From a bacterium (GTDB lineage Bacteria > Patescibacteriota > UBA1384 > VFKW01), in the NCBI GenBank assembly GCA_030647355.1, contig JAUSIS010000006.1, positions 90,221 to 154,220 of the forward strand: a DNA stretch of 64,000 nt, read 5' to 3'. This document shows positions 5,071-44,654 of this stretch, piece by piece. Position numbers and translations under genes: made by a program. Position 1 is the first letter of the stretch; every line of letters starts with the position of its first letter. Below the pieces are notes generated by a model. It saw only the letters and a program-made list of their open reading frames with translations. It ran no database searches and was not told where the DNA came from.

Positions 5071-5598
5071 ATGGTAAGTAAAAAAACAACTGGAAACAAG
5101 GCAGTTAAGAAGCCAGAAAGTTTAGTTGACTTAAAGAAGGTCCTGGATAATGCGGAAAAGCAGATACGTATTGCCAAGCAGTTGCTTTTTAAAGAGTTAT
5201 ATTGCGAGAAGGCAAAATCGCTTGAGTCTAGTGATGCTTCGGTTGAGGGTGTATTTGATGGTGTTGATATGGTTGGGTCAGATAGGAAGACCTATAAGGT
5301 GCCATCGAATTATGCCAGTAAATCAAAGTTGGTAGCCGGCGATATAATGAAACTATCAATAGATGATAAGGGAGCATATACGTATAAACAGATTGGTCCA
5401 GTTCAGCGCCAGAGATTAGTTGGTGTCCTTTGTGAGAATGAAACCGGTTATTATGCAGAATGCGAAGGCAGAGTATTTAATGTATTAGCGGCGAGTGTTA
5501 CATATTTGAAGGCAAAGGATGGAGACAGGGTTACATTGTTGGTGGCACGAGATCAAGAATGTAATTGGGCAGCCATAGATAATGTAATTTCCAGTTGA
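5071..5598 (+). CDS. Hypothetical protein sandwiched between the two T4CP-like paralogs
   Basis: The SD GGGAAGGAG precedes the ATG. The stop overlaps the TTG start of the next gene by 4 nt (TTGA), indicating translational coupling. Confidence 0.6.
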   Translation: MVSKKTTGNKAVKKPESLVDLKKVLDNAEKQIRIAKQLLFKELYCEKAKSLESSDASVEGVFDGVDMVGSDRKTYKVPSNYASKSKLVAGDIMKLSIDDKGAYTYKQIGPVQRQRLVGVLCENETGYYAECEGRVFNVLAASVTYLKAKDGDRVTLLVARDQECNWAAIDNVISS

Positions 5599-8540
5599 GT
5601 GCGGAGGTGAATATTAATTTGTTTAATCCAATAATAATATTAATAATTGGTCTTATCTTACTTGTAGTGATTGGCTTTATTATTGCTAAAATTCTACGGG
5701 ATAAGAGAAAAATCGAGGAATTTTTAGAGAAAGAATATGTCATTCTCTCAATTATGGTGCCAAAGAATAATGAAAAAACTCCACTGGCGGCCGAACAGAT
5801 GTTTGCGTCTTTGCATGGGATTTTAAAACCACAGGAGGACAAGCAAGAGCATATTAGTTTTGAGATTGCTTCTCAAGATAAATTCACTCAATTTTATGTC
5901 TGTGTGCGTAAAGAGTTGAAAGATTTTGTAGAAGGACAGATTTATGCTCAATACCCTAGTGTAGAAATAAAAGAAGTTCCGGATTATACGGGTATAGAAT
6001 TAGAAGGGATGTCGTCATATGCGACGGAGCTGACTTTAAGTAAAGAGGGTGTTTATCCGATAAAAACTTTTGAAAGTTTTGAGGTTGATCCACTGGCAGC
6101 TATTACAGGTGTTTTGTCGAAGGTTCAGGGTGATGAGCGTATTTGGATACAGATGTTGACCCGTCCGGTTGACGATAGTTGGCAGGATAAAGGCGTACAG
6201 ATCGTAAAGAATATGCGCGACGGGGTAAAAGCTGGGGGAAGTATCGGTCAGGAAATTGCCAACGCGTTTTTAATGCTTTTTAGGGAGCTTCTGATGGCGG
6301 TAGTTTCACCTCCGAAGCCTGAGGAGAAGAAGAAAGAAGATAAGGAAAAGAAAGAGGATAAAAAGTTGCCGGCACCGGTTGAAACGGCGATGGCGGGAAT
6401 CGAGACAAAGATACAAAAGCTGGGTTTTGAGACTAAAATAAGAATTATGACCGTTGCGCATGATGATGAATCAGCCAAGGCGAAGATGTTAGCTGTGATT
6501 GGAGTTTTTCGGCAATTCAATACAACTAATTTAAATAGTTTTGTTTCAGGTAAAATCGTTGATGGCGAGGAGTTACTACCTGTGTTTCAGATGAGGCCGT
6601 TTGGAGACAGAGGATATATTTTTAATATTGAAGAATTAGCTTCTATTTATCATTTTCCTCATATGTCAGTGGAGACGCCATCTATTGTTTGGGCGGGTGT
6701 AAAGAAGGGAGAACCGCCGGCGCATCTGCCAATACAGGGGATTGTTGATGATGATCATATGACAATTCTAGCCCAGACTAATTTTCGGCATCGCGAGCAG
6801 AAGTTTGGTATTAAGATGATTGACCGTCGGTTGCATATGTATAGTATTGGTAAAACTGGAACAGGGAAGTCAACGTTGATGGAAAATATGATCTATGACG
6901 ATCTTATTCGCGGTAGGGGTCTGGCGGTTGTTGATCCTCATGGTCAGACAATTGATCATATATTGAAATTTATACCAGAAGAAAGAATGAAGGATGTAGT
7001 GTACCTAAATCCGGCTGATCAAAGTTGTCCAATAGGTTTTAATCTATTGGAAAGTGTTGAGGCGGACCAAAAGAACATTATGGCTTCTGGGCTCATGAGT
7101 GTGTTTCTGAAACTATGGGAAGGGACATTCAGTGCCAGAATGGAATATATATTAAGGAATACCATTTTAGCATTAATTGATTATCCTAGAGCGACGATGC
7201 TCGGAATCATGAGGGTTTTGAATGATAAAAATTACCGCAAGATGATTTTATCTTACGTGAAGGATCCTGTAATTCTGGATTTTTTCTATAATGAGTACGA
7301 GAAGTATGATCCTAAATTTCGTACGGAAGCAATTGCGCCTATTCAGAACAAAGTCGGGCAATTCTTGTCATCGAGTACGATCAGAAATATTGTAGGTCAA
7401 GAGAAATCTACGATCAATATCTCTGAAATCATGAATAATGGAAAGATTCTTTTGGTTGATTTATCGGTGGGAAAGATCGGTGAGGATAACTCAACACTAC
7501 TGGGTTCCATGATGATTACTAAAATCCAGCTGGCTGCGATGCAAAGGGCGCATGTGCCGGAAGAAGAGAGGCGTGACTTTTATCTATATGTGGATGAATT
7601 CCAAAATTTTGCCACCGAATCCTTTGCTACTATTCTGTCTGAAGCAAGAAAATATCATTTAAATCTAACTCTGACAAATCAATATACGGCGCAGGTTGAT
7701 GAGAAAGTCATGGATGCAATTATGGGTAATATTGGAACCATGGTGGCATTTAGAGTCGGGGCACCAGATGCCGATCTGCTTGCCAAAGAGTTTGAGCCGG
7801 TATTTGAGACGACAGATTTGATTAACCAGCCCAACAGACATATATATATCAAAATGGCAATTGACGGTGTGACTTGTCCGGCTTTTTCAGCCGATACATT
7901 GCCACCTCGAGTATTGGAAAAGAGTTTTGGGGATGAAGCAATCGAATTTTCCCAGACGACATATGGTAGGCCGCGCGATGAGGTTGAGCAGGAGATTAAT
8001 GATTATATGAGTGAGGATATTGAGGAAGCAGTCAAGGAACTTGATCCAGTTATGGCAGAACTTCGTCAGGAATATAAGGAGATATCTATTAAAGGCGGTT
8101 ATAAGTGGTATCTGGGGGCAGGGGAAGAGGGGACAGATGAGGAGCTTATGGAGGAACCTATTAATGACGACAATAACGCCGGGGCGGATGAAACAGATAG
8201 TTCAAACCTGGTAAGCGATGATACCGAGATGGTTGCTCAAGATAGTGTTGGTCAAGATATGCCACAGGATAGTAGTCACATTATCTCCAGTCAGCTGGCT
8301 AATAAAATTGCCAAGAAGGCTAGGAAGAGAAACAGAAATAAAGAAAAGAAGAAGGCATTATCTGCTCAAGAGCAATTAGCTAATCAGGGTGAACTTTCTC
8401 CAGTTCAGATATCTCCAGATAGTATTAATATGCCCCCAGAGTCTACGCAGTCTACCCATTTACCTCAAACAGGATCTCATCATGGGCACCATACGACTAT
8501 CCTCGAAGAAGGAGAGACCGTAGACCTGAAGAATAACTAA
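5595..8540 (+). CDS. Membrane-anchored TrwB/VirD4-like coupling-protein family ATPase, paralog 2, with a long acidic/basic low-complexity C-terminal tail
   Basis: The motifs are SIGKTGTGKST, AVVDPHGQT, LYVDEFQNF and RKYHLNLTLTNQ. It shares the N-terminal blocks EQMFASLH and YPIKT.E..E.DPL with paralog 1. A KPEEKKKEDKEKKEDKK insert is present. The C-terminal ~190 aa are disordered (DEEL..DDNNAGADETDSS...KKARKRNRNKEKKK). Confidence 0.75.
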   Translation: MSAEVNINLFNPIIILIIGLILLVVIGFIIAKILRDKRKIEEFLEKEYVILSIMVPKNNEKTPLAAEQMFASLHGILKPQEDKQEHISFEIASQDKFTQFYVCVRKELKDFVEGQIYAQYPSVEIKEVPDYTGIELEGMSSYATELTLSKEGVYPIKTFESFEVDPLAAITGVLSKVQGDERIWIQMLTRPVDDSWQDKGVQIVKNMRDGVKAGGSIGQEIANAFLMLFRELLMAVVSPPKPEEKKKEDKEKKEDKKLPAPVETAMAGIETKIQKLGFETKIRIMTVAHDDESAKAKMLAVIGVFRQFNTTNLNSFVSGKIVDGEELLPVFQMRPFGDRGYIFNIEELASIYHFPHMSVETPSIVWAGVKKGEPPAHLPIQGIVDDDHMTILAQTNFRHREQKFGIKMIDRRLHMYSIGKTGTGKSTLMENMIYDDLIRGRGLAVVDPHGQTIDHILKFIPEERMKDVVYLNPADQSCPIGFNLLESVEADQKNIMASGLMSVFLKLWEGTFSARMEYILRNTILALIDYPRATMLGIMRVLNDKNYRKMILSYVKDPVILDFFYNEYEKYDPKFRTEAIAPIQNKVGQFLSSSTIRNIVGQEKSTINISEIMNNGKILLVDLSVGKIGEDNSTLLGSMMITKIQLAAMQRAHVPEEERRDFYLYVDEFQNFATESFATILSEARKYHLNLTLTNQYTAQVDEKVMDAIMGNIGTMVAFRVGAPDADLLAKEFEPVFETTDLINQPNRHIYIKMAIDGVTCPAFSADTLPPRVLEKSFGDEAIEFSQTTYGRPRDEVEQEINDYMSEDIEEAVKELDPVMAELRQEYKEISIKGGYKWYLGAGEEGTDEELMEEPINDDNNAGADETDSSNLVSDDTEMVAQDSVGQDMPQDSSHIISSQLANKIAKKARKRNRNKEKKKALSAQEQLANQGELSPVQISPDSINMPPESTQSTHLPQTGSHHGHHTTILEEGETVDLKNN

Positions 8541-17515: not shown

Positions 17516-18397
17516 CTATTTTTTTTGCCATTTGTATTTCCCTTTTGCGTCCGGTCGAATCTTCTGGATAGTTAGCATGACCTCTTCGCTTTTATCCAGG
17601 GAGACTTTGCGGATAGCTTCCCCATTTGTTCCGACTATCAGTTTTTCTGTGATGGTCATCACAAGAACTTTCTGGGAAGCCGGAAACATGATGGATTGGC
17701 CGTCGTCTTTGACCCCGACCTTTAACGAACGTGTTGTTGTTGAGGCCCTGGCTGTTTGAACACTGCCGCCAATCTCGACGACCTCAATTCCGACTTTGGC
17801 ACTGCTTTCCTGGGCGATGGAGACGCTGTCGGCGAGTTGGAATAGGGCTTCTGCGGAGTCGCCCTTGGCAAACATGTTGATCATCCTACTTACCGTGCCG
17901 ACCGGCTTGATCACTTCAGTTTGCTTTTTGGTGACTTTTGGCACGATCTTGAGGTAGTAGTTCCCGGTTCCTGTTGGGTGCCCTTTCTCATACATAGAGA
18001 TATGGATGTGATTGAGACCGATTCGAGAGTTGGTTGTGAACCGATTTTCCACACCAGTCTCACCAGTCAGCGAAGAATACCATTTCAGTGAATAATGGTG
18101 AGACTGGGAAATCACTGTGCCGGTGATTGGCATGAACACCTGAAACGAACGACTTCCAGTCCAGCGGTCCCATGTTCCCTGCCCCGAGACACCATATCCG
18201 GTGCCATTAGAGTTGTAGCGAGAGATGACGCCGATGCATTTGATGAGCAAATGCTGGGAGTTAACCAGTCGTATAGCATCCTCAAAAGTGAGCTTGTATA
18301 CGCTGGGTATTAGATCGACCTTGCGGTCGGCGGCGAATGCCGCGATGTTAAGTTGCGTGGAAACCAGTACTACCAGAATCCAAAATGACTTTCTCAA
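17516..18397 (-). CDS. Hypothetical secreted protein (signal peptide), GC-rich gene, controlled by GEMM-like leader copy 1
   Basis: TTG start with SD AGGAGGA 6 nt upstream. The N-terminus MRKSFWILVVLVSTQLNIAAFA is a signal peptide. GC content is clearly above the local background. Confidence 0.7.
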   Translation of the reverse strand: MRKSFWILVVLVSTQLNIAAFAADRKVDLIPSVYKLTFEDAIRLVNSQHLLIKCIGVISRYNSNGTGYGVSGQGTWDRWTGSRSFQVFMPITGTVISQSHHYSLKWYSSLTGETGVENRFTTNSRIGLNHIHISMYEKGHPTGTGNYYLKIVPKVTKKQTEVIKPVGTVSRMINMFAKGDSAEALFQLADSVSIAQESSAKVGIEVVEIGGSVQTARASTTTRSLKVGVKDDGQSIMFPASQKVLVMTITEKLIVGTNGEAIRKVSLDKSEEVMLTIQKIRPDAKGKYKWQKK

Positions 18398-18453
18398 AAC
18401 GAGATCCTCCTAGAGAGATATTTGTCAACAAATCTAGGAATTATGCCGATATC

Positions 18454-18699
18454 AAAAAAACTTCTTCCGAAGCTTCTTTGTGAGTACGTATTGAAGTTCG
18501 GCAACCCGGCGACCATTCCAGCTCTTTCAATGAAAGGGCTGGATTAGGCCCGTGGTTTTGCCCCGATGTCGGATTTTGTCCGGATCGGAGTCCCTTATCC
18601 TTCCGAAGAAGGGTGATGGGACGTCATCGCCTTTCGACGACTTTGCCTTTATCGACTTGTTAACAGGATTATTTTAGCACTTTTGCGCCTGTTTGTCAA
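18454..18699 (-). promoter_or_regulatory. GEMM (c-di-GMP-I)-like structured 5' leader, copy 1: promoter, conserved domain and intrinsic terminator
   Basis: On the minus strand the -35 TTGACA (18694-18699) is followed by 17 nt and the -10 TAAAAT (18671-18676). A conserved domain (about 18499-18654) is roughly 90% identical to copy 2. The terminator AAGAAGCUUCGGAAGAAG plus U7 lies at 18454-18479. The SD and TTG start of the 17516..18397 gene follow. Confidence 0.5.
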
Positions 18700-18819
18700 G
18701 AGTAAGTGTGGTAATAAAATTGCTGATTTATGGTTGATTTTTTTGTATATATATGTTAACATAGCTGATGGCTTCGAAATATGTGAGGGAGGTACAAGAA
18801 AATTCGAAAAGTAGTTACT

Positions 18820-19269
18820 TTGCTCGTTTGTCTGTTTTTTCTTTGTAGCAACGGTTGGGGCAATCAAGTTTTGGCAGCCAAGATGTCTGCCAGTCAGAAG
18901 GCAAAGGCAGAGGATGCTCAAATACGAGCAAAGCTGGCAAAGGCCGGCTGGCGAGTTGACCGGGTGATTCCGGTCACGATGACTGGTTATTCGTCAGAAA
19001 CTCCAGGTATGTCTGATAAGGGTACTTGCGAGACTAAGCTTGGCAAAGGTTCGGTGTCAGTTGACCCAAAGGTTATCAAGCTCTGGTCTCACCTTTACGT
19101 ATCCGGAGGTTACGGATATGGGCAGGCGTTGGATACTGGTCTTGCGATTCAGGGTGCGAAGATTGATTTGTGGTTCAAAACAGAAGAAGAGGCAATTCAA
19201 TTCGGACGCCGGTCCGGCAATGTCTATCTAATATCACGCGTTAGCCGCAAACGCAGCAACCATCATTAA
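18820..19269 (+). CDS. 3D-domain (MltA/YuiC-like) secreted protein
   Basis: ...VDPKVIKLWSHLYVSGGYGYGQALDTGLAIQGAKIDLWF...A..FG matches the 3D domain with its three conserved Asp. The N-terminus is hydrophobic, and the start is TTG. Confidence 0.7.
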   Translation: MLVCLFFLCSNGWGNQVLAAKMSASQKAKAEDAQIRAKLAKAGWRVDRVIPVTMTGYSSETPGMSDKGTCETKLGKGSVSVDPKVIKLWSHLYVSGGYGYGQALDTGLAIQGAKIDLWFKTEEEAIQFGRRSGNVYLISRVSRKRSNHH

Positions 19270-19270
19270 A

Positions 19271-19296
19271 CCCCCGTACTAGGGGGTCTTTTTTTA
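19271..19296 (+). terminator. Rho-independent terminator
   Basis: acccccgtactagggggtcttttttt. Confidence 0.8.
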
Positions 19297-19336
19297 TAAT
19301 ATTGACAACGTCTAGTGGGAAGACTAGCATTGAATT

Positions 19337-19650
19337 AGCCCCACGTAATTTCTTGAAGCAAAACTAAATAGGTAGTAATGGGAAACGGGGAAACAAAAGG
19401 ATAATTCGATGTTTTGCATGGGAGCGTCTTATTTTGAGTCATAGTCCAGGTGTTTTTTCTTTCGACTCAAAAGTTTCCAGCTCGGGCTAAACCTCCTCTG
19501 GGGTTAAGGAAATAGATTCTGAGAAACAGCAGGGCAATGCTGTCAAGGCACAAAAGTGGTACTCTTGGGCTGAGTACGGAATATAAGATAATCAGAGAAA
19601 AGCAAATCTTATATGGTTGCCACATATAAGATTTCTTTTTTTATTTTTAT
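19337..19650 (+). ncRNA. Candidate small RNA (promoter-to-terminator unit between convergent genes); identity unknown
   Basis: -35 TTGACA at 19302-19307, then 17 nt, then -10 TAGCAT at 19325-19330. The ~310 nt that follow are ORF-free with several hairpins. The unit ends in a strong terminator (AUCUUAUAUG-guugcca-CAUAUAAGAU plus U-run, 19606-19650). An upstream copy AUAUAAGAU (19581-19589) offers an alternative pairing. Confidence 0.3.
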
Positions 19651-20174
19651 TAGTCTCTTTTGTGATGATTGATTTCTTCCCTAAGTAAAGATAATCCTTC
19701 AAGTAAGTCTTGGTAATCCATTACTTTAAGGCGTGTCCGCTCCCATTGGTCGTGCTTTCTTGTGTCAACTTGACCTTCAGTTGCTGCAAATTTCAGTTCA
19801 TCAGCTTCTCGCTGAGTCGCTTCGAGCGATTCTTGGGTTACTTCAATGTCTTTATTGATATCGTCAATGTATTCGGTTGGTGAAAGGTTATTGGAGGTTA
19901 AGTCATCGAAAATTTTTCTGACTGTCTCCTGATATTCAGCGGTGAGTTTGCCATACTCATCTTTAACCCTAGCTAACTCGTCGTCACATAGAGGTTCGGC
20001 TGTGTTGTAGGTTTGATTATGAATTCTAGTAAGCTGCCTTTTAGTCTTTAATAGATTGGAAGCGGGGTTGGGAGGTTTGAGATAGAAATTCTTATCTTTT
20101 TCAGTTGGTGTTGCTTGGTCGGGATTGGGCATTTGATCGAATAAATTCTTTAGTGAGTATTCATCTTCTGGCAT
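19650..20174 (-). CDS. Hypothetical coiled-coil protein
   Basis: Charged and heptad-rich; no domain recognised. Confidence 0.6.
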   Translation of the reverse strand: MPEDEYSLKNLFDQMPNPDQATPTEKDKNFYLKPPNPASNLLKTKRQLTRIHNQTYNTAEPLCDDELARVKDEYGKLTAEYQETVRKIFDDLTSNNLSPTEYIDDINKDIEVTQESLEATQREADELKFAATEGQVDTRKHDQWERTRLKVMDYQDLLEGLSLLREEINHHKRD

Positions 20175-20223
20175 AGTTCTCCTTTTTCTTTACTCTAGTG
20201 TTTGGGATGGAGAAAGGAACGTG

Positions 20224-20691
20224 TTATATGAGAGTTCGAATGTATTGGCCGATGATGAAGCCGACGATGATTACAACTAATCCGATGAGTAAATGCCCGA
20301 GAACCGATTGGGCTCTTTTTTCTTTCGGCGAGACAAAGTAGCTAAGCAGAGCTAATAACAGCATACCCCAAGTAATACTAGCGATCAGTGCCGGTGTTGT
20401 GGATAGAAATATCGCAGGTACTAAAAACGTAAGAGCGATAATTAGCTTAGTAAAGTAAGTACTAAAAGTGGCAGTCCAGATTTCCTTTTTATTGTGGGTG
20501 TCTTCTGATTCTTCAGAGATATGGATGCCGAGTGCATCGGAGAAGGCATCGGCAAAAGCGATGGTTAAGATTCCTCCAATAATCAGAGCTTGCGATGCGT
20601 TACTGGCAGTAAGACCAACAATCAAGCCGAGGGTTGTTATAACTCCAGAAGTTGTGCCAAAGCTGAAGCCGATTTTTGAAGAGTGATTCAT
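20224..20691 (-). CDS. VIT1/CCC1-family-like (DUF125) small membrane protein
   Basis: GTTSGVITTLGLIVG ... AFADAFSDALGIHISEES resembles the VIT-family GANDG/...AGALSMA.GEYVS blocks. It is shorter than typical family members. Confidence 0.45.
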   Translation of the reverse strand: MNHSSKIGFSFGTTSGVITTLGLIVGLTASNASQALIIGGILTIAFADAFSDALGIHISEESEDTHNKKEIWTATFSTYFTKLIIALTFLVPAIFLSTTPALIASITWGMLLLALLSYFVSPKEKRAQSVLGHLLIGLVVIIVGFIIGQYIRTLI

Positions 20692-20728
20692 AGTTTTTCT
20701 CTCCTTTTCTACGCTCTAGTATTTTTTA

Positions 20729-21118
20729 TTACTCTTCTTCTTTTCCTGCTTCGGCGGCTATGGCGTCTTCTTTGGTGGCGTGGATTGTGCCTTCGGGATG
20801 GTGAGCTGGAGAGTAAATAGTATAGAGTTTCATGGGATTTTCTGTATCGGTGTTTATTATGTCGTGCTCGGTGCCGGCAGAAATGACGACTGCCCAGCCA
20901 CTATCTATAACATACTCTTCCCCATCTAAAACGGCTTTGCCGGTGCCTTCTTCGATTCTGATGAATTGATCGTTATCGGGGTGAACTTCCATGCCAATAT
21001 TCTCCGAGGGCTTGAGACTCATTACTACCAATTGGCTATTCGGGGCAGTGAAGATTACTTTTCGAAAGTTATCGTTTGATTCGGAAAGCTCTTCGATATT
21101 TCCTACGAATCCATTCAT
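20729..21118 (-). CDS. Cupin-domain protein
   Basis: ...GMEVHPDNDQFIRIEEGTGKAVLDGEEYVIDSGWAVVISAGTEHDIIN is a two-His/Glu cupin_2-like barrel. Confidence 0.75.
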   Translation of the reverse strand: MNGFVGNIEELSESNDNFRKVIFTAPNSQLVVMSLKPSENIGMEVHPDNDQFIRIEEGTGKAVLDGEEYVIDSGWAVVISAGTEHDIINTDTENPMKLYTIYSPAHHPEGTIHATKEDAIAAEAGKEEE

Positions 21119-21274
21119 GTTTACCTCCGTTTACTTATGTATTTATTTTAAAGTAAATGACGCATTGAATCAATAGAACTAATGTAGACTCGATTTTATA
21201 AAGTCTGATAATTTTTGCATTAAATAGCGGGTGTTGGTGCCAATTTTAGTATCACCGATCTTAATATTATCAAT

Positions 21275-22014
21275 TTAAACCACTGGTACAATACCGCGTG
21301 TTGTTGATGATATAAATGCTTCGGTAGCTTCTTTTAATTCTATAAGATTCACAGGTCGCTCGGCGATTTTGAAATCTTGTGCCAGCTTTAATATTAAATT
21401 TCGCCTCGTGCCCTGAAGAATGTCTTTTTTGGGAGTTATTAATTCGTTACCTCGGAAAATAAAGAAATTGAAAGTTGTGCCTTCGAGAATTTTATCGTGC
21501 CAAGTATAAATAATGTCATAGGCATTTTTCTTTTTTATCAACTTTTGCGGCTTAGCATCGTAAGATAGTTAGTGGATTTTGCTTCTGGCTTTGTGCGTAA
21601 GTACTCGTGGGTGATTAGTTTGACGCCTTTTTGATAGATTTCTGGAGCATGGATGGGCAGTGAAGCGGCGGTGACGAAGAAGGTGGGGGTTTTGCTGTCG
21701 AAGTGTGTGCCGTCCGGGCTTTCGCCCCCGGAAAGAAAGAGTCGAATTCCAGCATCGGGAAGATTATTTTTTTGGATTAATTTTAATATTAAACTTTCGA
21801 TTTGGTGGTTGGTGAGAGGGATTCTCAGGTTTAATTTTTTTGCGGAATTGGCAAAGCGTTTGAGATGTTTGTCCAAGAGCAATGGTTTGCTGTTGTGGCT
21901 TCGCAGGAAATCAAAAACGGCGTAGCCGCGCAGCAAGCCGATATCATTAATTGATATTTGGGCATTATGAACGGGGATGATTTTGCCGTTTGAATAGCAG
22001 TATTGTGGTTTCAT
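21275..22014 (-). pseudogene. Class IV (branched-chain/D-amino-acid) aminotransferase split by a frameshift at an A6/T6 homopolymer
   Basis: The N-terminal fragment (21538..22014) ends ...KSTNYLTMLSRKS*. The C-terminal fragment (21275..21541) continues ...KKKNAYDIIYTWHDKILEGTTFNFFIF...TRGIVPV. Together they cover the full fold-type IV aminotransferase. The two frames overlap 4 nt at the run ttttttatca (21531-21540). Confidence 0.7.
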
Positions 22015-22065
22015 GTATTATATTTTAGCAAAATAATTCCCAGAATTAAATGGTTATAGAGAGAT

Positions 22066-23115
22066 TTAAATATTTGAAGTGCTATCGGCGGACAACTTAT
22101 TTGATGGTACTCTTTTAATGAAATGATCTAAGATGTCATCAAGGATCGGCAAGCTGGTGAGTGTGCCGTTAATAATGATTAGATAGGATAGTTTGTTAAA
22201 TTGGTTGAATATAATTAATAGTAGAATTACTACCATAATAAGAATAGTACCTGTAATTATCTTTATTTTATCTTCATCGACAGGATCTGCTATACACTGG
22301 CCAGTATACACAATGTCTGTTCGGAATTGTTTAATTGCTCGAATAGGATTGAAGTGACGACTAGGTACAAGTTGCCAAAGAAGGTTTAAGAAAGACAGTA
22401 TATTTGTCACCCTCAATGCAATAAATATATTGAATAAAAGATAAGAAGCGGCCATTCCATAAATGAAGAGTTCTTTGTATAAGTTATCTGGTCGGGCTAT
22501 TACATTGAAGTGATTATAAAGGCTGTAGCTTAAATATGAAAGGTATGCGATATTAGCTACCCAGAAAAATATTAGCAGTCTTTTAAGTAAGGCGGGAATC
22601 TGCTTTTGATAGAATCTTGAATAAATCCAAATTGTGCAAATGATGAAAAAAGCTATTATGTCTATTGCTAGTGTCGTCTTCGAGAGAATGGAAATTGTCA
22701 ATGATAATATAGCGAGCTGAAGGATGCTTGTTTTGCTTATATTAGATAGATAATATTGGTAAATAGAGACGGAAAGACCTACGGAAAATGCAAGCAAGAC
22801 GGCGCCAATGAAGTAATATTCTTCGAAGGCAAGGTAGCCTCTTGTATCTATAAAAGTTATTCCCAGGATGGCAGCGAGAAAAATTGCTATTGGATACCAC
22901 CAAGACAATTTTAAATCTTTAACTCCCGGGTTATTCCTCTTTACACTCCAAAAGAGGAGATAACTTGCGAGGAGAGATCCGGCTGCTAAATATATATACT
23001 CAATTCGTTGCTCAAATAATATACTGATTGCCATAGTGGTAGTTAGAAAAATTAGTATCCCTAGTAGCAGTTTGCCTATAAATGTAAAAATATTATTTAC
23101 TTTATTCATTTTCAT
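22066..23115 (-). CDS. Hypothetical polytopic membrane protein (about 10 TM)
   Basis: Continuous hydrophobic helices; no catalytic motif recognised. Confidence 0.65.
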   Translation of the reverse strand: MKMNKVNNIFTFIGKLLLGILIFLTTTMAISILFEQRIEYIYLAAGSLLASYLLFWSVKRNNPGVKDLKLSWWYPIAIFLAAILGITFIDTRGYLAFEEYYFIGAVLLAFSVGLSVSIYQYYLSNISKTSILQLAILSLTISILSKTTLAIDIIAFFIICTIWIYSRFYQKQIPALLKRLLIFFWVANIAYLSYLSYSLYNHFNVIARPDNLYKELFIYGMAASYLLFNIFIALRVTNILSFLNLLWQLVPSRHFNPIRAIKQFRTDIVYTGQCIADPVDEDKIKIITGTILIMVVILLLIIFNQFNKLSYLIIINGTLTSLPILDDILDHFIKRVPSNKLSADSTSNI

Positions 23116-23187
23116 ATTTATATTATACCACCCGAGAGGTGTCCTAGCAAATGCCGAGTTTTACCAGAAAATAATTTAATGAAATAA

Positions 23188-23208
23188 GGGCTGGCAGTGC
23201 CAGCCCTT
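23188..23208 (-). terminator. Terminator hairpin after the 23215..23682 gene
   Basis: gggctggcagtgccagccc is a perfect 8-bp GC stem. Confidence 0.6.
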
Positions 23209-23214
23209 ATGGGG

Positions 23215-23682
23215 TTAATCGATTGCCCAGATATTAACATAGGCTTCGATTATTAGTCGCATAGCGGCGATAGCGGAGTTGCGGGTGTGGAGGCAGAGAT
23301 TGGCAAGCCGAGCTTCAAATTCTTCATAGAACTCGGGCGAGTGCTCCCAGTCAATGTAACGTGCGAGCATGTTTCGCTGAAATTCTGTATCGCAGAGGCG
23401 GTCAAGATATGTATCGTACTGCGCCCACTCGACGGTCGGGATTCTGCCCCCATTTGCTGACCAGAGGGCTAGGGCAAACATGTTGACGACACGCAGGAAG
23501 CTGTCGTGTTCATATTGGCCGCCCGAGCCATCGCTAATCCCGCTTGCACCTATTGCGCATTCTTTTGCTAGGCCCATGAGCCAAGAGTGGAAACGGGGCG
23601 AAGTGCCCTTGATGAGATCGAGGGCATTGAGCCTGCTGTCTTTTGCGGTCTTGGTGTCTTTCTTGTCAATTTTAAGCGACAT
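23215..23682 (-). CDS. Hypothetical protein (GC-rich), controlled by GEMM-like leader copy 2
   Basis: ATG start with SD GGGAGGA upstream; no domain recognised. Confidence 0.6.
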   Translation of the reverse strand: MSLKIDKKDTKTAKDSRLNALDLIKGTSPRFHSWLMGLAKECAIGASGISDGSGGQYEHDSFLRVVNMFALALWSANGGRIPTVEWAQYDTYLDRLCDTEFQRNMLARYIDWEHSPEFYEEFEARLANLCLHTRNSAIAAMRLIIEAYVNIWAID

Positions 23683-23734
23683 GGGAATCCTCCCAATTTG
23701 GATTTGTCAAAAATCCTTAGCCGCAATCGGTTTT

Positions 23735-23963
23735 GAAACAAATACACCAACCGGAGCTGGTGTATTTGCGAGAACCATCCGGCAACCCGGCTGCCATCCA
23801 AGCTTTTTCAACGAAAGAGCTGGATTAGGCCCGTGGCTTTGCCCCGATGTCGGATTTTGTCCGGATCGGAGTCCCCTGAGGAACGTCATCGTCTTTCGAC
23901 GACTTTGCCTTTATCGGGTTTTTAATATAAGCGTATTTTAGCACAAAATATGGGATTTGTCAA
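23735..23963 (-). promoter_or_regulatory. GEMM (c-di-GMP-I)-like structured 5' leader, copy 2: promoter, conserved domain and intrinsic terminator
   Basis: On the minus strand the -35 TTGACA (23958-23963) is followed by 17 nt and TG-n-TAAAAT (23935-23940). The conserved domain is at 23779-23918. The terminator-like hairpin AAAUACACCAGCUCCGGUUGGUGUAUUU plus GUUUC is at 23735-23768. The SD and ATG of 23215..23682 follow. Confidence 0.5.
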
Positions 23964-24067
23964 TCCTCTATGTGATTTTATTTATGCGGGATGGTGGCAT
24001 GAAAAAAGCCCCCGAAGGGGCATGGTGAAATGTCGGATTACTACTTTACCTTAGGGATGCCTGAGGT

Positions 24068-24454
24068 CTAGGGATCCACTAGGACATCGGCCAGCGGTAT
24101 TAGTATGAAGCTGGCAACTAGCGTCACTGGGATCTGTGCCCAGAGACTGTGGGTGAGGGAGAGGGTTATCGCGATAGCGAAGAATGCCGAACAAGCAATA
24201 GTGGCGCAGATGGTTGGCGCCGGCTCGCCATCACGGAACCAACTCACTATCTTCAAGTTCTTGCAGTATTCGGGGTAGCAGGAGAGGCAGATAAGGATGA
24301 TCCAGACGATGCCCACGATGATACCCATAACCACTTCCGCCCAGAACCTGTGAAGGTTGAGGGCTTGGATTGTGCCAATGCATACGAGTGTGCCAATGGC
24401 GACGGTGGTCCAGAATGTCAAATCAGCAGCGAATTTCTGATCTCGGCTTTGCAC
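24068..24454 (-). CDS. Hypothetical small membrane protein (4 TM, GC-rich)
   Basis: Hydrophobic helices and a Cys-rich loop; no motif recognised. Confidence 0.55.
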   Translation of the reverse strand: MQSRDQKFAADLTFWTTVAIGTLVCIGTIQALNLHRFWAEVVMGIIVGIVWIILICLSCYPEYCKNLKIVSWFRDGEPAPTICATIACSAFFAIAITLSLTHSLWAQIPVTLVASFILIPLADVLVDP

Positions 24455-31253: not shown

Positions 31254-32687
31254 TTAATCTCCTACTTGGGTATCGGTTTGTTTGAGTTCTTTGCCCTTAG
31301 CTTCTTCGCTTAGGCGGATGTGAACATCTTTGAGTTGTTGTTGGGAAACTTGAGAAGGGGCGCCCATCATCAAATCTCTGGCGTCGCCATTTTTGGGGAA
31401 AGCGATAACTTCACGAATTACATCCTCGCCGGATAAAATTGCGCAGATGCGATCAATGCCGGGGGCAATACCTCCATGAGGTGGTGCACCATATTCAAAG
31501 GCTTCTAGCATGTGGCCGAAGCGGCGCTTCTTTTCTTCGTCAGAAACCCCTAGTAGTTTGAAAATTTTGTCTTGTAATTCGTGCTGGTGAATTCTGATGG
31601 AGCCGCTGGCAATTTCGTAGCCATTCAATACTAAGTCATAACAATAAGCGTTCACTTTAGTCGGATCGCTTTCAAGTTTATCCATATCTTCCGCTTTTGG
31701 CATGGTGAATGGATGATGAGAGCTGACAAGCTTTTTTTCCGTTTGGGAATATTTGAAAAGTGGAAAATCAATTATCCATGAGAATGCTAGTTCGTCTTTA
31801 TTTTCTTTATCTTTTCGCAAGTCGGGTTTATCATTTTTGTATTTTTCCATTGATTCGGCGTATGAAATGCGAGGGAAAGGAATTTTTGCGATTTTCTTTT
31901 CAGGGCATAACTTCTTGACCATCTCAATCATCATCGGTTCAATCAGGTCGAATATGCCTTCTTGTTTTATAAAACTCATTTCCAAGTCTAGCTGGGTGAA
32001 TTCGGATTGTCTGTCCCCTCTCTGGTCTTCGTCTCGGAAACAACGGGCAATTTGAAAGTAACGTTCTATGCCGCCGACCATTAGCAGTTGCTTGAATTGT
32101 TGAGGGCTTTGTGGTAAGACATAAAATTCACCAGGATAAAGGCGGGCAGGAACAATATATTCTCTGGCTCCTTCTGGTGTAGATTTTGTTAGATAGGGTG
32201 TTTCGATTTCCCGAAAATCTTCTTTGTATAAATATTCACGGATGAATTTGACGACGTTGTGGCGTAGTGTAATATTGTTTGACATGCGTTCTGTGCGCAG
32301 GTCCAGATAGCGATATTTTAATCTTAATTCTTCGTCAATTCCTTTGGTGTCTTTGTCGATTTCAAACGGAGGAGTTTTAGAGGTATTGAGGATCTCCAAT
32401 TCGGCGGCTTCCATCTCGACTTTGCCAGTGGGTAGATTGGGATTTACTAGCTTTTCTGGCCGAGCTTTAACGGTGCCGGTAATTTCAACTACCCACTCAG
32501 GCCGAAGATCTTTTATTTTTTCGTATGCTTTGGAGCCGGGAACAATAACAATTTGAAGGACGCCACTTCTATCTCTTAGATCGATAAAAACAATTTTGCC
32601 GTGATCGCGTCTGTTATTTACCCAGCCGCTGACTGTTACTTCTTTGCCAATATTTTTGGTGGTCTCGGCGATCATTGTTCTTTTCAT
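31254..32687 (-). CDS. Class IIb aminoacyl-tRNA synthetase: aspartyl- (archaeal/non-discriminating type) or asparaginyl-tRNA ligase
   Basis: An N-terminal OB fold is followed by motif 2 FRDEDQRGDRQSEFTQLDLEMSF and motif 3 GGIAPGIDRICAIL. The 477-aa length cannot separate AspRS type 2 from AsnRS without an alignment. Confidence 0.85.
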   Translation of the reverse strand: MKRTMIAETTKNIGKEVTVSGWVNNRRDHGKIVFIDLRDRSGVLQIVIVPGSKAYEKIKDLRPEWVVEITGTVKARPEKLVNPNLPTGKVEMEAAELEILNTSKTPPFEIDKDTKGIDEELRLKYRYLDLRTERMSNNITLRHNVVKFIREYLYKEDFREIETPYLTKSTPEGAREYIVPARLYPGEFYVLPQSPQQFKQLLMVGGIERYFQIARCFRDEDQRGDRQSEFTQLDLEMSFIKQEGIFDLIEPMMIEMVKKLCPEKKIAKIPFPRISYAESMEKYKNDKPDLRKDKENKDELAFSWIIDFPLFKYSQTEKKLVSSHHPFTMPKAEDMDKLESDPTKVNAYCYDLVLNGYEIASGSIRIHQHELQDKIFKLLGVSDEEKKRRFGHMLEAFEYGAPPHGGIAPGIDRICAILSGEDVIREVIAFPKNGDARDLMMGAPSQVSQQQLKDVHIRLSEEAKGKELKQTDTQVGD

Positions 32688-43733: not shown

Positions 43734-44654
43734 TTATTTAGTATTTTCTTTGGGGTACTGGATTCGCTGATGAAATATAGCATTTAAACTCTCAATGAAT
43801 GAGCGGCGAAGTTTAGAGATTTGTTTCGCAGATAGGGCGGCGTTATCTAGTTGGCCTTCATTAGTTTTTTGCTCAATAGCTTGGTTGACGATTTCTCGTA
43901 TATCGGTGAGGGTCGGATCAGATTCCGAGCGGACTGCTGCTTCTAAAGTGTCTGCTAACATGACGATAGCTATTTCTGCAGACTGAGGTTTGGGTCCTGG
44001 ATATTTGAAATCGGCTTTTTTGGTCTTTTGACTGTCTTGCTTACTCTTTTCGTAAAAATAAGATACCGTTGAGGTCCCATGGTGTTGTTGGATGAAGTTA
44101 ATGACTTCTTGGGGTAGATGGTTTTCTTTGGCGATCTCGACGCCATTTGTAACATGATTGATAATTATTTGGGCGCTTTCCTCGGGGTTTTCAATCTGAT
44201 CATGGATATTTTGGGAAGAAGATTGGTTTTCGACAAAAAAATCAGGCTGGACAATTTTTCCTATGTCGTGGTAATATGCTCCAACTCGCGTAAGAAGGGA
44301 ATCGGCATTAATTGTCTTGGCGGCGCGAGAAGAAATATTGGCGACCGTTAAAGTGTGATGATAAGTGCCGGGTGCTTCGTGAGAAAAGCGAACCATAAGT
44401 GGATGGCTTAAGCTTTCCAATCGAAGAAGGCGGCGGAATGTTGTGAGATACTCGCGGAAGATCGGTGATGAGGAGACGATAAAGTAAGCAATTAGTCCTC
44501 CGGATAAAATGGCGGGGAAAACAATTAAAATAATTCTTGTTGTTATGTTTTCAACTAGAAATAGATTTATTGCAAAAGCAATAGAGTAAAAGACGAGATT
44601 AATACCTGTGATTATAGCTGTTAAGATTAGCCCATAACGCAGAGTTTTATTCAT
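43734..44654 (-). CDS. Membrane-anchored HD/HDIG-domain protein (PgpH/YqfF-like)
   Basis: N-terminal TM helices are followed by the HD motifs HTLTVANIS..., YYHDIGK and QQHHGTS. The gene order PgpH-like then YbeY is as in Firmicutes. Confidence 0.7.
   Translation of the reverse strand: MNKTLRYGLILTAIITGINLVFYSIAFAINLFLVENITTRIILIVFPAILSGGLIAYFIVSSSPIFREYLTTFRRLLRLESLSHPLMVRFSHEAPGTYHHTLTVANISSRAAKTINADSLLTRVGAYYHDIGKIVQPDFFVENQSSSQNIHDQIENPEESAQIIINHVTNGVEIAKENHLPQEVINFIQQHHGTSTVSYFYEKSKQDSQKTKKADFKYPGPKPQSAEIAIVMLADTLEAAVRSESDPTLTDIREIVNQAIEQKTNEGQLDNAALSAKQISKLRRSFIESLNAIFHQRIQYPKENTK

Follow-up and report, generated by a model that had tools for sequence, protein, structure and literature searches.

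A candidate four-way-junction subtype of the c-di-GMP-I riboswitch in a probable Candidate Phyla Radiation genome

Riboswitches of the cyclic di-guanosine monophosphate (c-di-GMP) I class, also called GEMM-I, were first described as having a simple first hairpin, in which stems of 2 and 6 base pairs (bp) are separated by a 3-nucleotide (nt) internal loop (PMC1950547). Here we describe two leaders in a 64,000-nt stretch of bacterial DNA (the window, part of contig JAUSIS010000006.1; positions below are those of the window, on the minus strand unless stated otherwise) whose first hairpin lacks this simple form. Every conserved element of the class is kept, and 42 nt in one aptamer (copy 2, 23778-23919) or 61 nt in the other (copy 1, 18497-18657) are added between the GAC and the GC of the first hairpin, folding as two further hairpins. 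On the evidence of sequence and folding, both elements are likely to be functional c-di-GMP-I riboswitches of a subtype of which we found no description.

Aptamer core and placement of the insert

A cmscan search of the window against Rfam returned two matches in the whole 64 kb, both to the c-di-GMP-I family RF01051 and both above its gathering score of 35 bits: copy 2 at 48.4 bits (E = 2.1e-6, 23919-23778) and copy 1 at 47.3 bits. RF01051 was itself the best member of clan CL00126 for each copy, and c-di-GMP-II (RF01786) gave no match in the window at its gathering score. The variant-specific covariance model R1, described below, scored copy 2 at 60.7 bits over 23825-23918. An original prediction, made from the letters of the DNA alone, had proposed a GEMM-like aptamer at this position and had named the RF01051 model as a means of checking it; the scores of both copies relative to the curated threshold bear out that identity.

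The core of copy 2 can be followed residue by residue against the Vc2 aptamer, for which the numbering was taken from PMC11705072 together with our own count. In Vc2, C44 forms a long-range Watson-Crick pair with G83, the pairs G45-C22 and C46-G21 lie directly above the ligand, and the ligand is contacted by G20 and C92 (PMC11705072). The 5' portion of copy 2 (23904-23920) comprises the 5' strand of the outer helix (AACC, then CG), the junction AUAAA, the G20 equivalent (23909), the closing G21-C22 (23908-23907) and AAA, and its spacing of CG, 5 nt, G and GC equals that of C13-G14...G20-G21-C22 in Vc2. It is followed by the upper P1b hairpin GUCGUC-GAAA-GACGAU (23888-23903; GUCGUC-GAAA-GRCGAU when both window copies are considered), which is capped by a GNRA tetraloop, and by GAC (23885-23887), the C of which is the C44 equivalent and pairs across to G83 in P2. 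Beyond the insert, the segment 23784-23842 holds the closing G45-C46 (23842-23841), the A47-A49 linker (23840-23838; GC-AAA-GCC at 23842-23835) and P2 with the tetraloop receptor CCUAA...GAUGG and an AG bulge containing the G83 equivalent, the two P2 strands being complementary at 10/10 positions. The 3' tail GCCGGAUGGUU (23773-23783) contributes the C92 equivalent (23782) and the CG and GGUU of the outer helix, and would also serve as the 5' arm of the antiterminator proposed below. The GAAA hairpin, receptor, linker and ligand-contacting nucleotides are thus all present as had been claimed.

The added sequence of copy 2 consists of a first hairpin, Ins1 (GUUCC-UCAG-GGGAC, 23871-23884), and a second, Ins2 (CCGAU-C-CGGA-CAAAA-UCCG-AC-AUCGG, 23844-23869), so that the fold runs GAC, Ins1, one U, Ins2, one G and then GC-AAA-GCC. 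Because the closing 2-bp stem, formed by the GC after G20 and the GC before AAA, now encloses three helices, the junction is a four-way junction. Numbered as in Vc2, the insert comes after C44 and before G45, which puts it one nucleotide away from the tertiary contact C44-G83 and at a distance of two base pairs from the pocket. Whilst the two extra hairpins had been recognised correctly, their point of insertion had not: they had been placed between GACG and CAAAGCC, on the J2/3 junction strand, with the G after GAC taken as G45. That G is instead the first base of Ins1 and pairs with the C of GGGAC; the true closing G45-C46 is the GC directly before AAAGCC, and the insert sits inside the internal loop of the first hairpin.

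Copy 1 is built in the same way and shares ~81% identity with copy 2 from promoter through terminator. Its Ins1 (18622-18590) is extended by a UUCG-capped arm and is longer than that of copy 2, and its 26-nt Ins2 (18588-18563) is identical in sequence. The 293-residue protein encoded downstream of copy 1 has a single relative beyond itself in homologue searches, P0003 (54% identity), which lies on a short Logan-assembled contig, L035, from run SRR29243440. The leader of the L035 gene shares with the window leaders a TTGACA/TATAAT promoter, the flank GUUAACAA...CGAAAAAGGCAAA, the P2 strands, the GCCGAA tail and the CUUCGGAAGAAGUUUUUUU terminator, and its aptamer is canonical, without an insert, and scores 85.8 bits against RF01051. 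When the three leaders are aligned, one clean gap appears, exactly between GAC and GCAAA. Since the orthologous gene has a canonical aptamer and the gap falls precisely at the GAC/GC boundary, the two-hairpin module is a clean indel on an otherwise ordinary GEMM-I riboswitch. It may have been gained in the window lineage or lost in L035; the core of the window variant is 85% identical both to canonical L035 and to a variant relative, L004.

Related loci and covariation

Relatives were sought with the pattern GGCAAA, N6, GNRA, N6, GAC, 35-65 nt, GCAAANCNNNGGNNCTAA. In a collection of species-representative genomes this gave 16 loci, 13 of them in Candidatus Omnitrophota and 3 in Planctomycetia or Planctomycetales, and a slightly freer pattern gave 17 loci in metagenomes; there were no matches in viral contigs, and by our own arithmetic each scan should yield fewer than ~1 match by chance. 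Locus L029 was set aside as a canonical aptamer with a fortuitous upstream match to the pattern. After de-duplication the set comprised 30 unique sequences, i.e. the two window copies and 28 others, mostly from Omnitrophota genomes.

When the stretch from GAC to GCAAA was folded by itself, exactly two end-flush hairpins were obtained in all 30 sequences, 20 of which have no linker nucleotide around them. Dinucleotide-shuffled inserts produced this architecture in 6.8% of cases, and the natural inserts have a mean z-score of -4.25. A trimmed seed alignment (A2) was used to build R1, with which the real sequences were then aligned (A3). In the R1 alignment 98.9% of cells in the upper P1b stem are paired, and all six of its base pairs have changed on both sides; the corresponding figures are 96.5% and 5/5 pairs for the five basal pairs of Ins1 and 96.4% and 5/5 pairs for those of Ins2. 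The observed covariation score was reached by none of 500 shuffles, and sliding the 3' partners by 1-3 columns lowers pairing to 35-47%. Outside the stems, the G equivalent to G83 in the P2 bulge is kept in every relative. The base of Ins1 is biased in sequence, being mostly GUCCC/GGGAC-like and often starting with GUCCC or YCCC; the arms are 14-40 nt and 19-41 nt long, respectively, and their loops carry no conserved motif. Both extra hairpins are therefore conserved and covarying in homologous loci, and this, together with the match to the family model, upholds the proposal of a structural variant of c-di-GMP-I bearing a two-hairpin insertion.

RF01051 also exceeds its gathering score at 19 related loci. 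The variant subtype nevertheless scores 37-50 bits, whereas its canonical neighbours L029 and L035 reach 81-86 bits, and 8 of the ~27 variants that are not truncated at a contig end miss the gathering score. For 22 of the 25 loci with enough flanking sequence, an open reading frame (ORF) begins on the same strand 20-576 nt downstream, and none of the 30 sequences lies inside a long ORF. A search of the 64-kb window with R1 found the two copies and no others. On these grounds a dispersed repeat, such as a miniature inverted-repeat transposable element, was rejected, and placement outside long coding sequences agrees with what the original prediction expected of a riboswitch.

Two further observations concern particular relatives. 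About half of the related four-way-junction aptamers (L004, L005, L006, L007, L011-L014, L017-L019, L021, L026 and L034) contain two alternative 3' strands for P2, a proximal strand A and a distal strand B, with a GCCGAA-like tail after each. Strand B doubles as the 5' half of a terminator in several of these loci, and cmscan chooses A or B depending on the locus; the arrangement, which is not present in the window copies, looks like a three-state expression platform. The metagenomic four-way-junction aptamer L030 (6816-6976 of its own contig, plus strand) has A in place of G at the position-20 equivalent (AAUAGCAAAC) and may be a cyclic GMP-AMP (cGAMP)-type version of the subtype.

Expression platform, ligand and role of the insert

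In both window copies the elements follow one another in the order promoter, aptamer, terminator, Shine-Dalgarno (SD) sequence and gene. The copy-2 promoter (23935-23963) has TTGACA, a 17-nt spacer and TG-n-TAAAAT, agrees with the consensus at 11/12 positions and has an extended -10 element; it ties with the copy-1 promoter (18671-18699), of identical hexamers, as the best promoter-like match in 18300-24100. Since a terminator at 24021-24008, upstream of the copy-2 promoter, ends the preceding gene, the copy-2 leader and its gene form a separate transcription unit; the gene has a terminator-like hairpin of its own at its 3' side. In the minimum free energy (MFE) fold of the copy-2 leader the aptamer is followed by an intrinsic terminator (23735-23769) with a 14-bp stem, a UCCG loop and UUUC, and then by the SD sequence GGGAGGA (23694-23688) and the regulated ORF, which runs from an ATG at 23682 to 23215. 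Promoter, hairpin with U-tract, SD sequence and start codon were all found where the original prediction had put them. In copy 1 the terminator (18453-18480, -11.9 kcal/mol) has a GGAA loop and is followed by U7, and the SD sequence AGGAGGA and the regulated gene occupy 17516-18411.

A TTGACAAAT box, the same sequence as the copy-2 -35 region, stands just upstream of the SD sequence in both leaders (23702-23710 and 18420-18428). This 9-mer occurs six times in the window against 1.08 expected, three of the six being within the two riboswitch leaders. A second promoter at the box before each SD sequence was considered and rejected, because no -10 element follows it; the box could be an operator or part of the SD-proximal hairpin.

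No part of the terminator overlaps the aptamer in either leader: it follows the aptamer entirely, and both form in the same MFE fold, so that a ligand-stabilised aptamer cannot directly block the terminator. An alternative pairing is available in copy 2, copy 1 and L035, in which the 3' tail of the aptamer pairs with the top of the 5' strand of the terminator and its loop: CCGGA-UGGU with ACCA-GC-UCCGG in copy 2 (-10.6 kcal/mol), CCGAA-CUUC with GAAG-C-UUCGG in copy 1 (-8.6 kcal/mol) and CCGAA-A-GU with AC-UUCGG in L035 (-11.9 kcal/mol). The differences among the three are mutually compensating. Among the residues of this tail are C92 and those of the outer helix on its 3' side; that helix is AACC/GGUU in copy 2 and AAGU/ACUU in copy 1. 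In the mechanism we propose, the tail of the ligand-free RNA (GCCGRA and the 3' strand of the outer helix) would pair with the top of the terminator 5' strand and loop, allowing read-through, whilst binding of c-di-GMP would hold the tail in the pocket and outer helix, so that the terminator can fold and expression of the orphan gene downstream stops. We accordingly lean towards the window copies being transcriptional OFF switches, with rather less assurance than we attach to their being riboswitches of this class.

As to the ligand, both window copies have G at position 20 (23909 in copy 2; AAAG-GC) and not the A of GEMM-Ib, and the other canonical determinants, i.e. the A47-A49 linker, the C92 equivalent (23782), the outer-helix CG/CG pairs at Vc2 spacing and C44, are also retained. 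The genes downstream of the relatives encode prepilin-type proteins (N_methyl), a T2SSE ATPase with MshEN, a PAS-GAF-HD-GYP protein, OmpA-family and mechanosensitive-channel-like proteins, and very large proteins with signal-peptide-like N-termini, a set that matches the classic GEMM repertoire (PMC1950547). Because the pocket and tertiary-contact nucleotides are kept and the genes of relatives are typical c-di-GMP targets, the ligand is most likely still c-di-GMP. The gene set also agrees with reports in which giant proteins of Omnitrophota are linked to PilZ and GGDEF domains and to type II/IV secretion-like loci (bioRxiv 10.1101/2023.11.21.568195). Ultra-small bacteria from groundwater reportedly carry diguanylate cyclase genes (PMC9938205).

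The genes controlled in the window are less informative. The copy-2 product is a 155-residue orphan whose only database match is itself (Q7S37_01835), and a single-sequence AlphaFold2 model of it (mean predicted local distance difference test score, 39.9) was unusable. Neither this protein nor the 293-residue copy-1 product has a match in Pfam; the latter has a signal-peptide-like N-terminus, as judged by eye, and the former has no visible signal peptide. The expectation that the regulated genes would encode secreted or hypothetical proteins therefore holds for copy 2 as regards an orphan without a Pfam match, and fails as regards secretion.

For the insert itself, we envisage that Ins1 and Ins2 would stack coaxially into a side arm in a stacked-X arrangement, leaving the canonical stack, the docked GAAA tetraloop and the pocket unchanged. 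Such an arrangement would fit the linkers between Ins1 and Ins2 and between Ins2 and G45, which are usually of zero length, and the retained tetraloop, receptor and C44/G83 pair require the canonical stack to be kept. Our best guess is that the role of the arm is architectural or concerns folding kinetics, since only the bases of the stems are constrained and lengths and loops vary freely.

Other readings of the extra sequence and of its consequences were weighed against this one. The cmscan alignment accommodates 43 or 62 extra nt within an enlarged P1b loop and pairs GUCGUC with GACAUC, in which case the GAAA tetraloop would be lost and no four-way junction would exist. We regard this as extremely improbable and rejected the placement: the pairing it implies is broken by 2/6 mismatches in the window and reaches 37%, i.e. 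the random level, over the 30 sequences, whereas the local GNRA hairpin is 99.4% paired in the same comparison, with all six pairs covarying, and the gap in the orthologue alignment falls after GAC. It is also very improbable that the elements are decayed or neutral, a GEMM-I aptamer having been disrupted by an inserted repeat or mobile sequence with loss of the sensor. The identical 26-nt Ins2 and near-identical cores of the two copies, as in recent duplicates, would suit such an origin, as would the orphan status of the regulated window genes; yet the architecture is kept, with unrelated Ins sequences and compensatory changes, in the 28 other sequences and in other phyla, each copy has an intact promoter, terminator and antiterminator, with covariation from one copy to the other, R1 finds only the two copies in the window, and none of the 30 sequences lies in a long ORF.

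Retaining the same aptamer, the window copies might instead be ON switches or act on translation. Many GEMM-I riboswitches are ON switches with a terminator overlapping P2 (PMC1950547), the relatives L010 and L028 look like P2-overlapping ON switches, and the SD sequence of both window leaders lies within a small hairpin; we nevertheless think this unlikely here, because the window terminator shares no nucleotides with P2 or the outer helix and forms alongside the folded aptamer, and the sole conserved alternative pairing joins the aptamer tail to the terminator 5' arm. The insert might also alter function by favouring another ligand (3'3'-cGAMP, pGpG or a different dinucleotide) or by recruiting a second factor, a protein or an ion, to the arm. 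Its nearness to the C44-G83 pair (one nt) and to the pocket (two bp), the conservation of the subtype across many genomes, which argues for selection, and the bias towards GUCCC/GGGAC-like sequence at the base of Ins1 could all be cited for this, but we find it improbable given that the known specificity determinants G20 (not A), A47 and C92 are unchanged, that a canonical aptamer governs the orthologous gene in L035, that neither arm shows constraint on its length or loop, as a site for a ligand or protein would, and that the regulated genes of relatives are typical c-di-GMP targets. The same evidence gives no support to the altered ligand specificity, or to the related but distinct class, that had been entertained beside the structural variant.

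Several considerations count against our preferred reading, that of c-di-GMP-I aptamers acting as transcriptional OFF switches. Specificity and switching polarity are both deduced from sequence and folding. The copy-2 terminator hairpin, taken alone (-20.6 kcal/mol), is far more stable than the antiterminator (-10.6 kcal/mol), and control would therefore need to be kinetic. A crude motif scan of the ORFs of the 64-kb window showed no GGDEF or EAL gene; extended to HD-GYP and PilZ, it recovered only an HD-domain protein (43734-44654). As GCAAA, GNRA, GAC, GCAAA and CTAA were fixed by the search pattern, their conservation is built into the set, and most variants that differ in the pocket would have escaped detection; L030, with A at position 20, surfaced once that position was freed. 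The Ins pair counts come from per-sequence MFE folds (A2) or from a model-fitted alignment (A3), both of which favour structure. Our evidence is for these reasons limited to the features that were not fixed, namely the stems, the G83 equivalent, the P2 3' strand and the tail, and the test of architecture against shuffled inserts is a more independent control than the Ins pair columns.

Genomic context and relation to known riboswitches

The window is even in composition (~41% GC) and most likely derives from a Candidate Phyla Radiation (CPR) genome, not from one of the Omnitrophota; the closest named relatives of its aspartyl-tRNA synthetase (31254-32687) are from Candidatus Berkelbacteria and the Patescibacteria group, at 74-77% identity. 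Since the window is probably of CPR origin while most relatives are from Omnitrophota, the subtype is represented in at least two or three phyla. The HD-domain protein at 43734-44654 has 306 residues, an HDxGK motif and a Pfam match to HD only. A class IV aminotransferase (21275-22014) is split into two adjacent, slightly overlapping ORFs of 158 and 88 residues, both matching PF01063, which could reflect a frameshift, a pseudogene or an assembly error. A 981-residue protein on the plus strand (5595-8540) contains a TrwB-type coupling-protein domain, as found in type IV secretion systems. The GC skew of the plus strand is positive (0.03-0.3) from 1 to ~57 kb and negative beyond 58 kb; genes lie mostly on the minus strand between 10 and 56 kb and on the plus strand after 57 kb, so that gene orientation opposes the usual relation to skew on both sides of the switch at 57-58 kb.

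With canonical RF01051 aptamers such as Vc2 the variant shares the outer helix, the G20/A47/C92 pocket, the first hairpin with its 2-bp and 6-bp GNRA stems, the AAA linker, P2 and receptor, the C44-G83 pair, a position in the 5' untranslated region and an association with pili, secretion and signalling genes; it differs in having two covarying hairpins, 39-66 nt in total, between C44 and G45. Precedent for a subtype within the class exists in the GEMM-Ib riboswitches for 3'3'-cGAMP (Geobacter type), which use the same GEMM-I scaffold and which, in work from 2015 associated with the names of Kellenberger and of Nelson, are reportedly set apart by changes in the pocket, chiefly A at position 20. 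Unlike these, the window copies have G at position 20 and differ by added helices. The c-di-GMP-I-GGC and c-di-GMP-I-UAU motifs of clan CL00126, recognised sequence variants of the same scaffold, are likewise defined by changed conserved nucleotides and not by extra helices, and c-di-GMP-II (RF01786) serves the same ligand and similar regulated functions with an unrelated fold. What appears to be new is thus the two-helix addition; in all other respects the elements would belong to the known c-di-GMP-I class, binding being predicted. Literature searches, which also took in riboswitches of Omnitrophota or Patescibacteria and the c-di-GMP-I-GGC motif, turned up no account of a GEMM-I aptamer with such an insert or a four-way junction, and no paper combining Patescibacteria or CPR, c-di-GMP and riboswitches; coverage was incomplete, and these absences are not proof.

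A bolder and doubtful reading is that the arm is a functional module, one that retunes affinity, folding kinetics or selectivity, or docks a second partner, and that marks a dedicated regulon of attachment, pilus or large secreted proteins under c-di-GMP or a near-cognate dinucleotide in ultra-small bacteria. Were this true, its hosts would be ultra-small and possibly episymbiotic or predatory organisms, comprising Omnitrophota and a Berkelbacteria-like CPR organism, and a CPR riboswitch could report a dinucleotide not made by its own cell.

On the preferred reading of an ordinary c-di-GMP pocket beside an architectural or folding-kinetic arm, the finding would matter in other ways. GEMM-I is among the best-studied riboswitch folds, and its first hairpin has been described as highly conserved; the scaffold seems to tolerate, or to exploit, a four-way junction at exactly this place, which is relevant to RNA structural biology and to the design of biosensors. 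The Rfam model misaligns the insert and loses 30-40 bits, and because 8 of ~27 complete examples fall below its threshold, the c-di-GMP regulons of Omnitrophota and similar uncultured bacteria are under-annotated. For the organism of the window, the two leaders provide direct sequence evidence for riboswitch control of the c-di-GMP type in a Berkelbacteria-like CPR genome.

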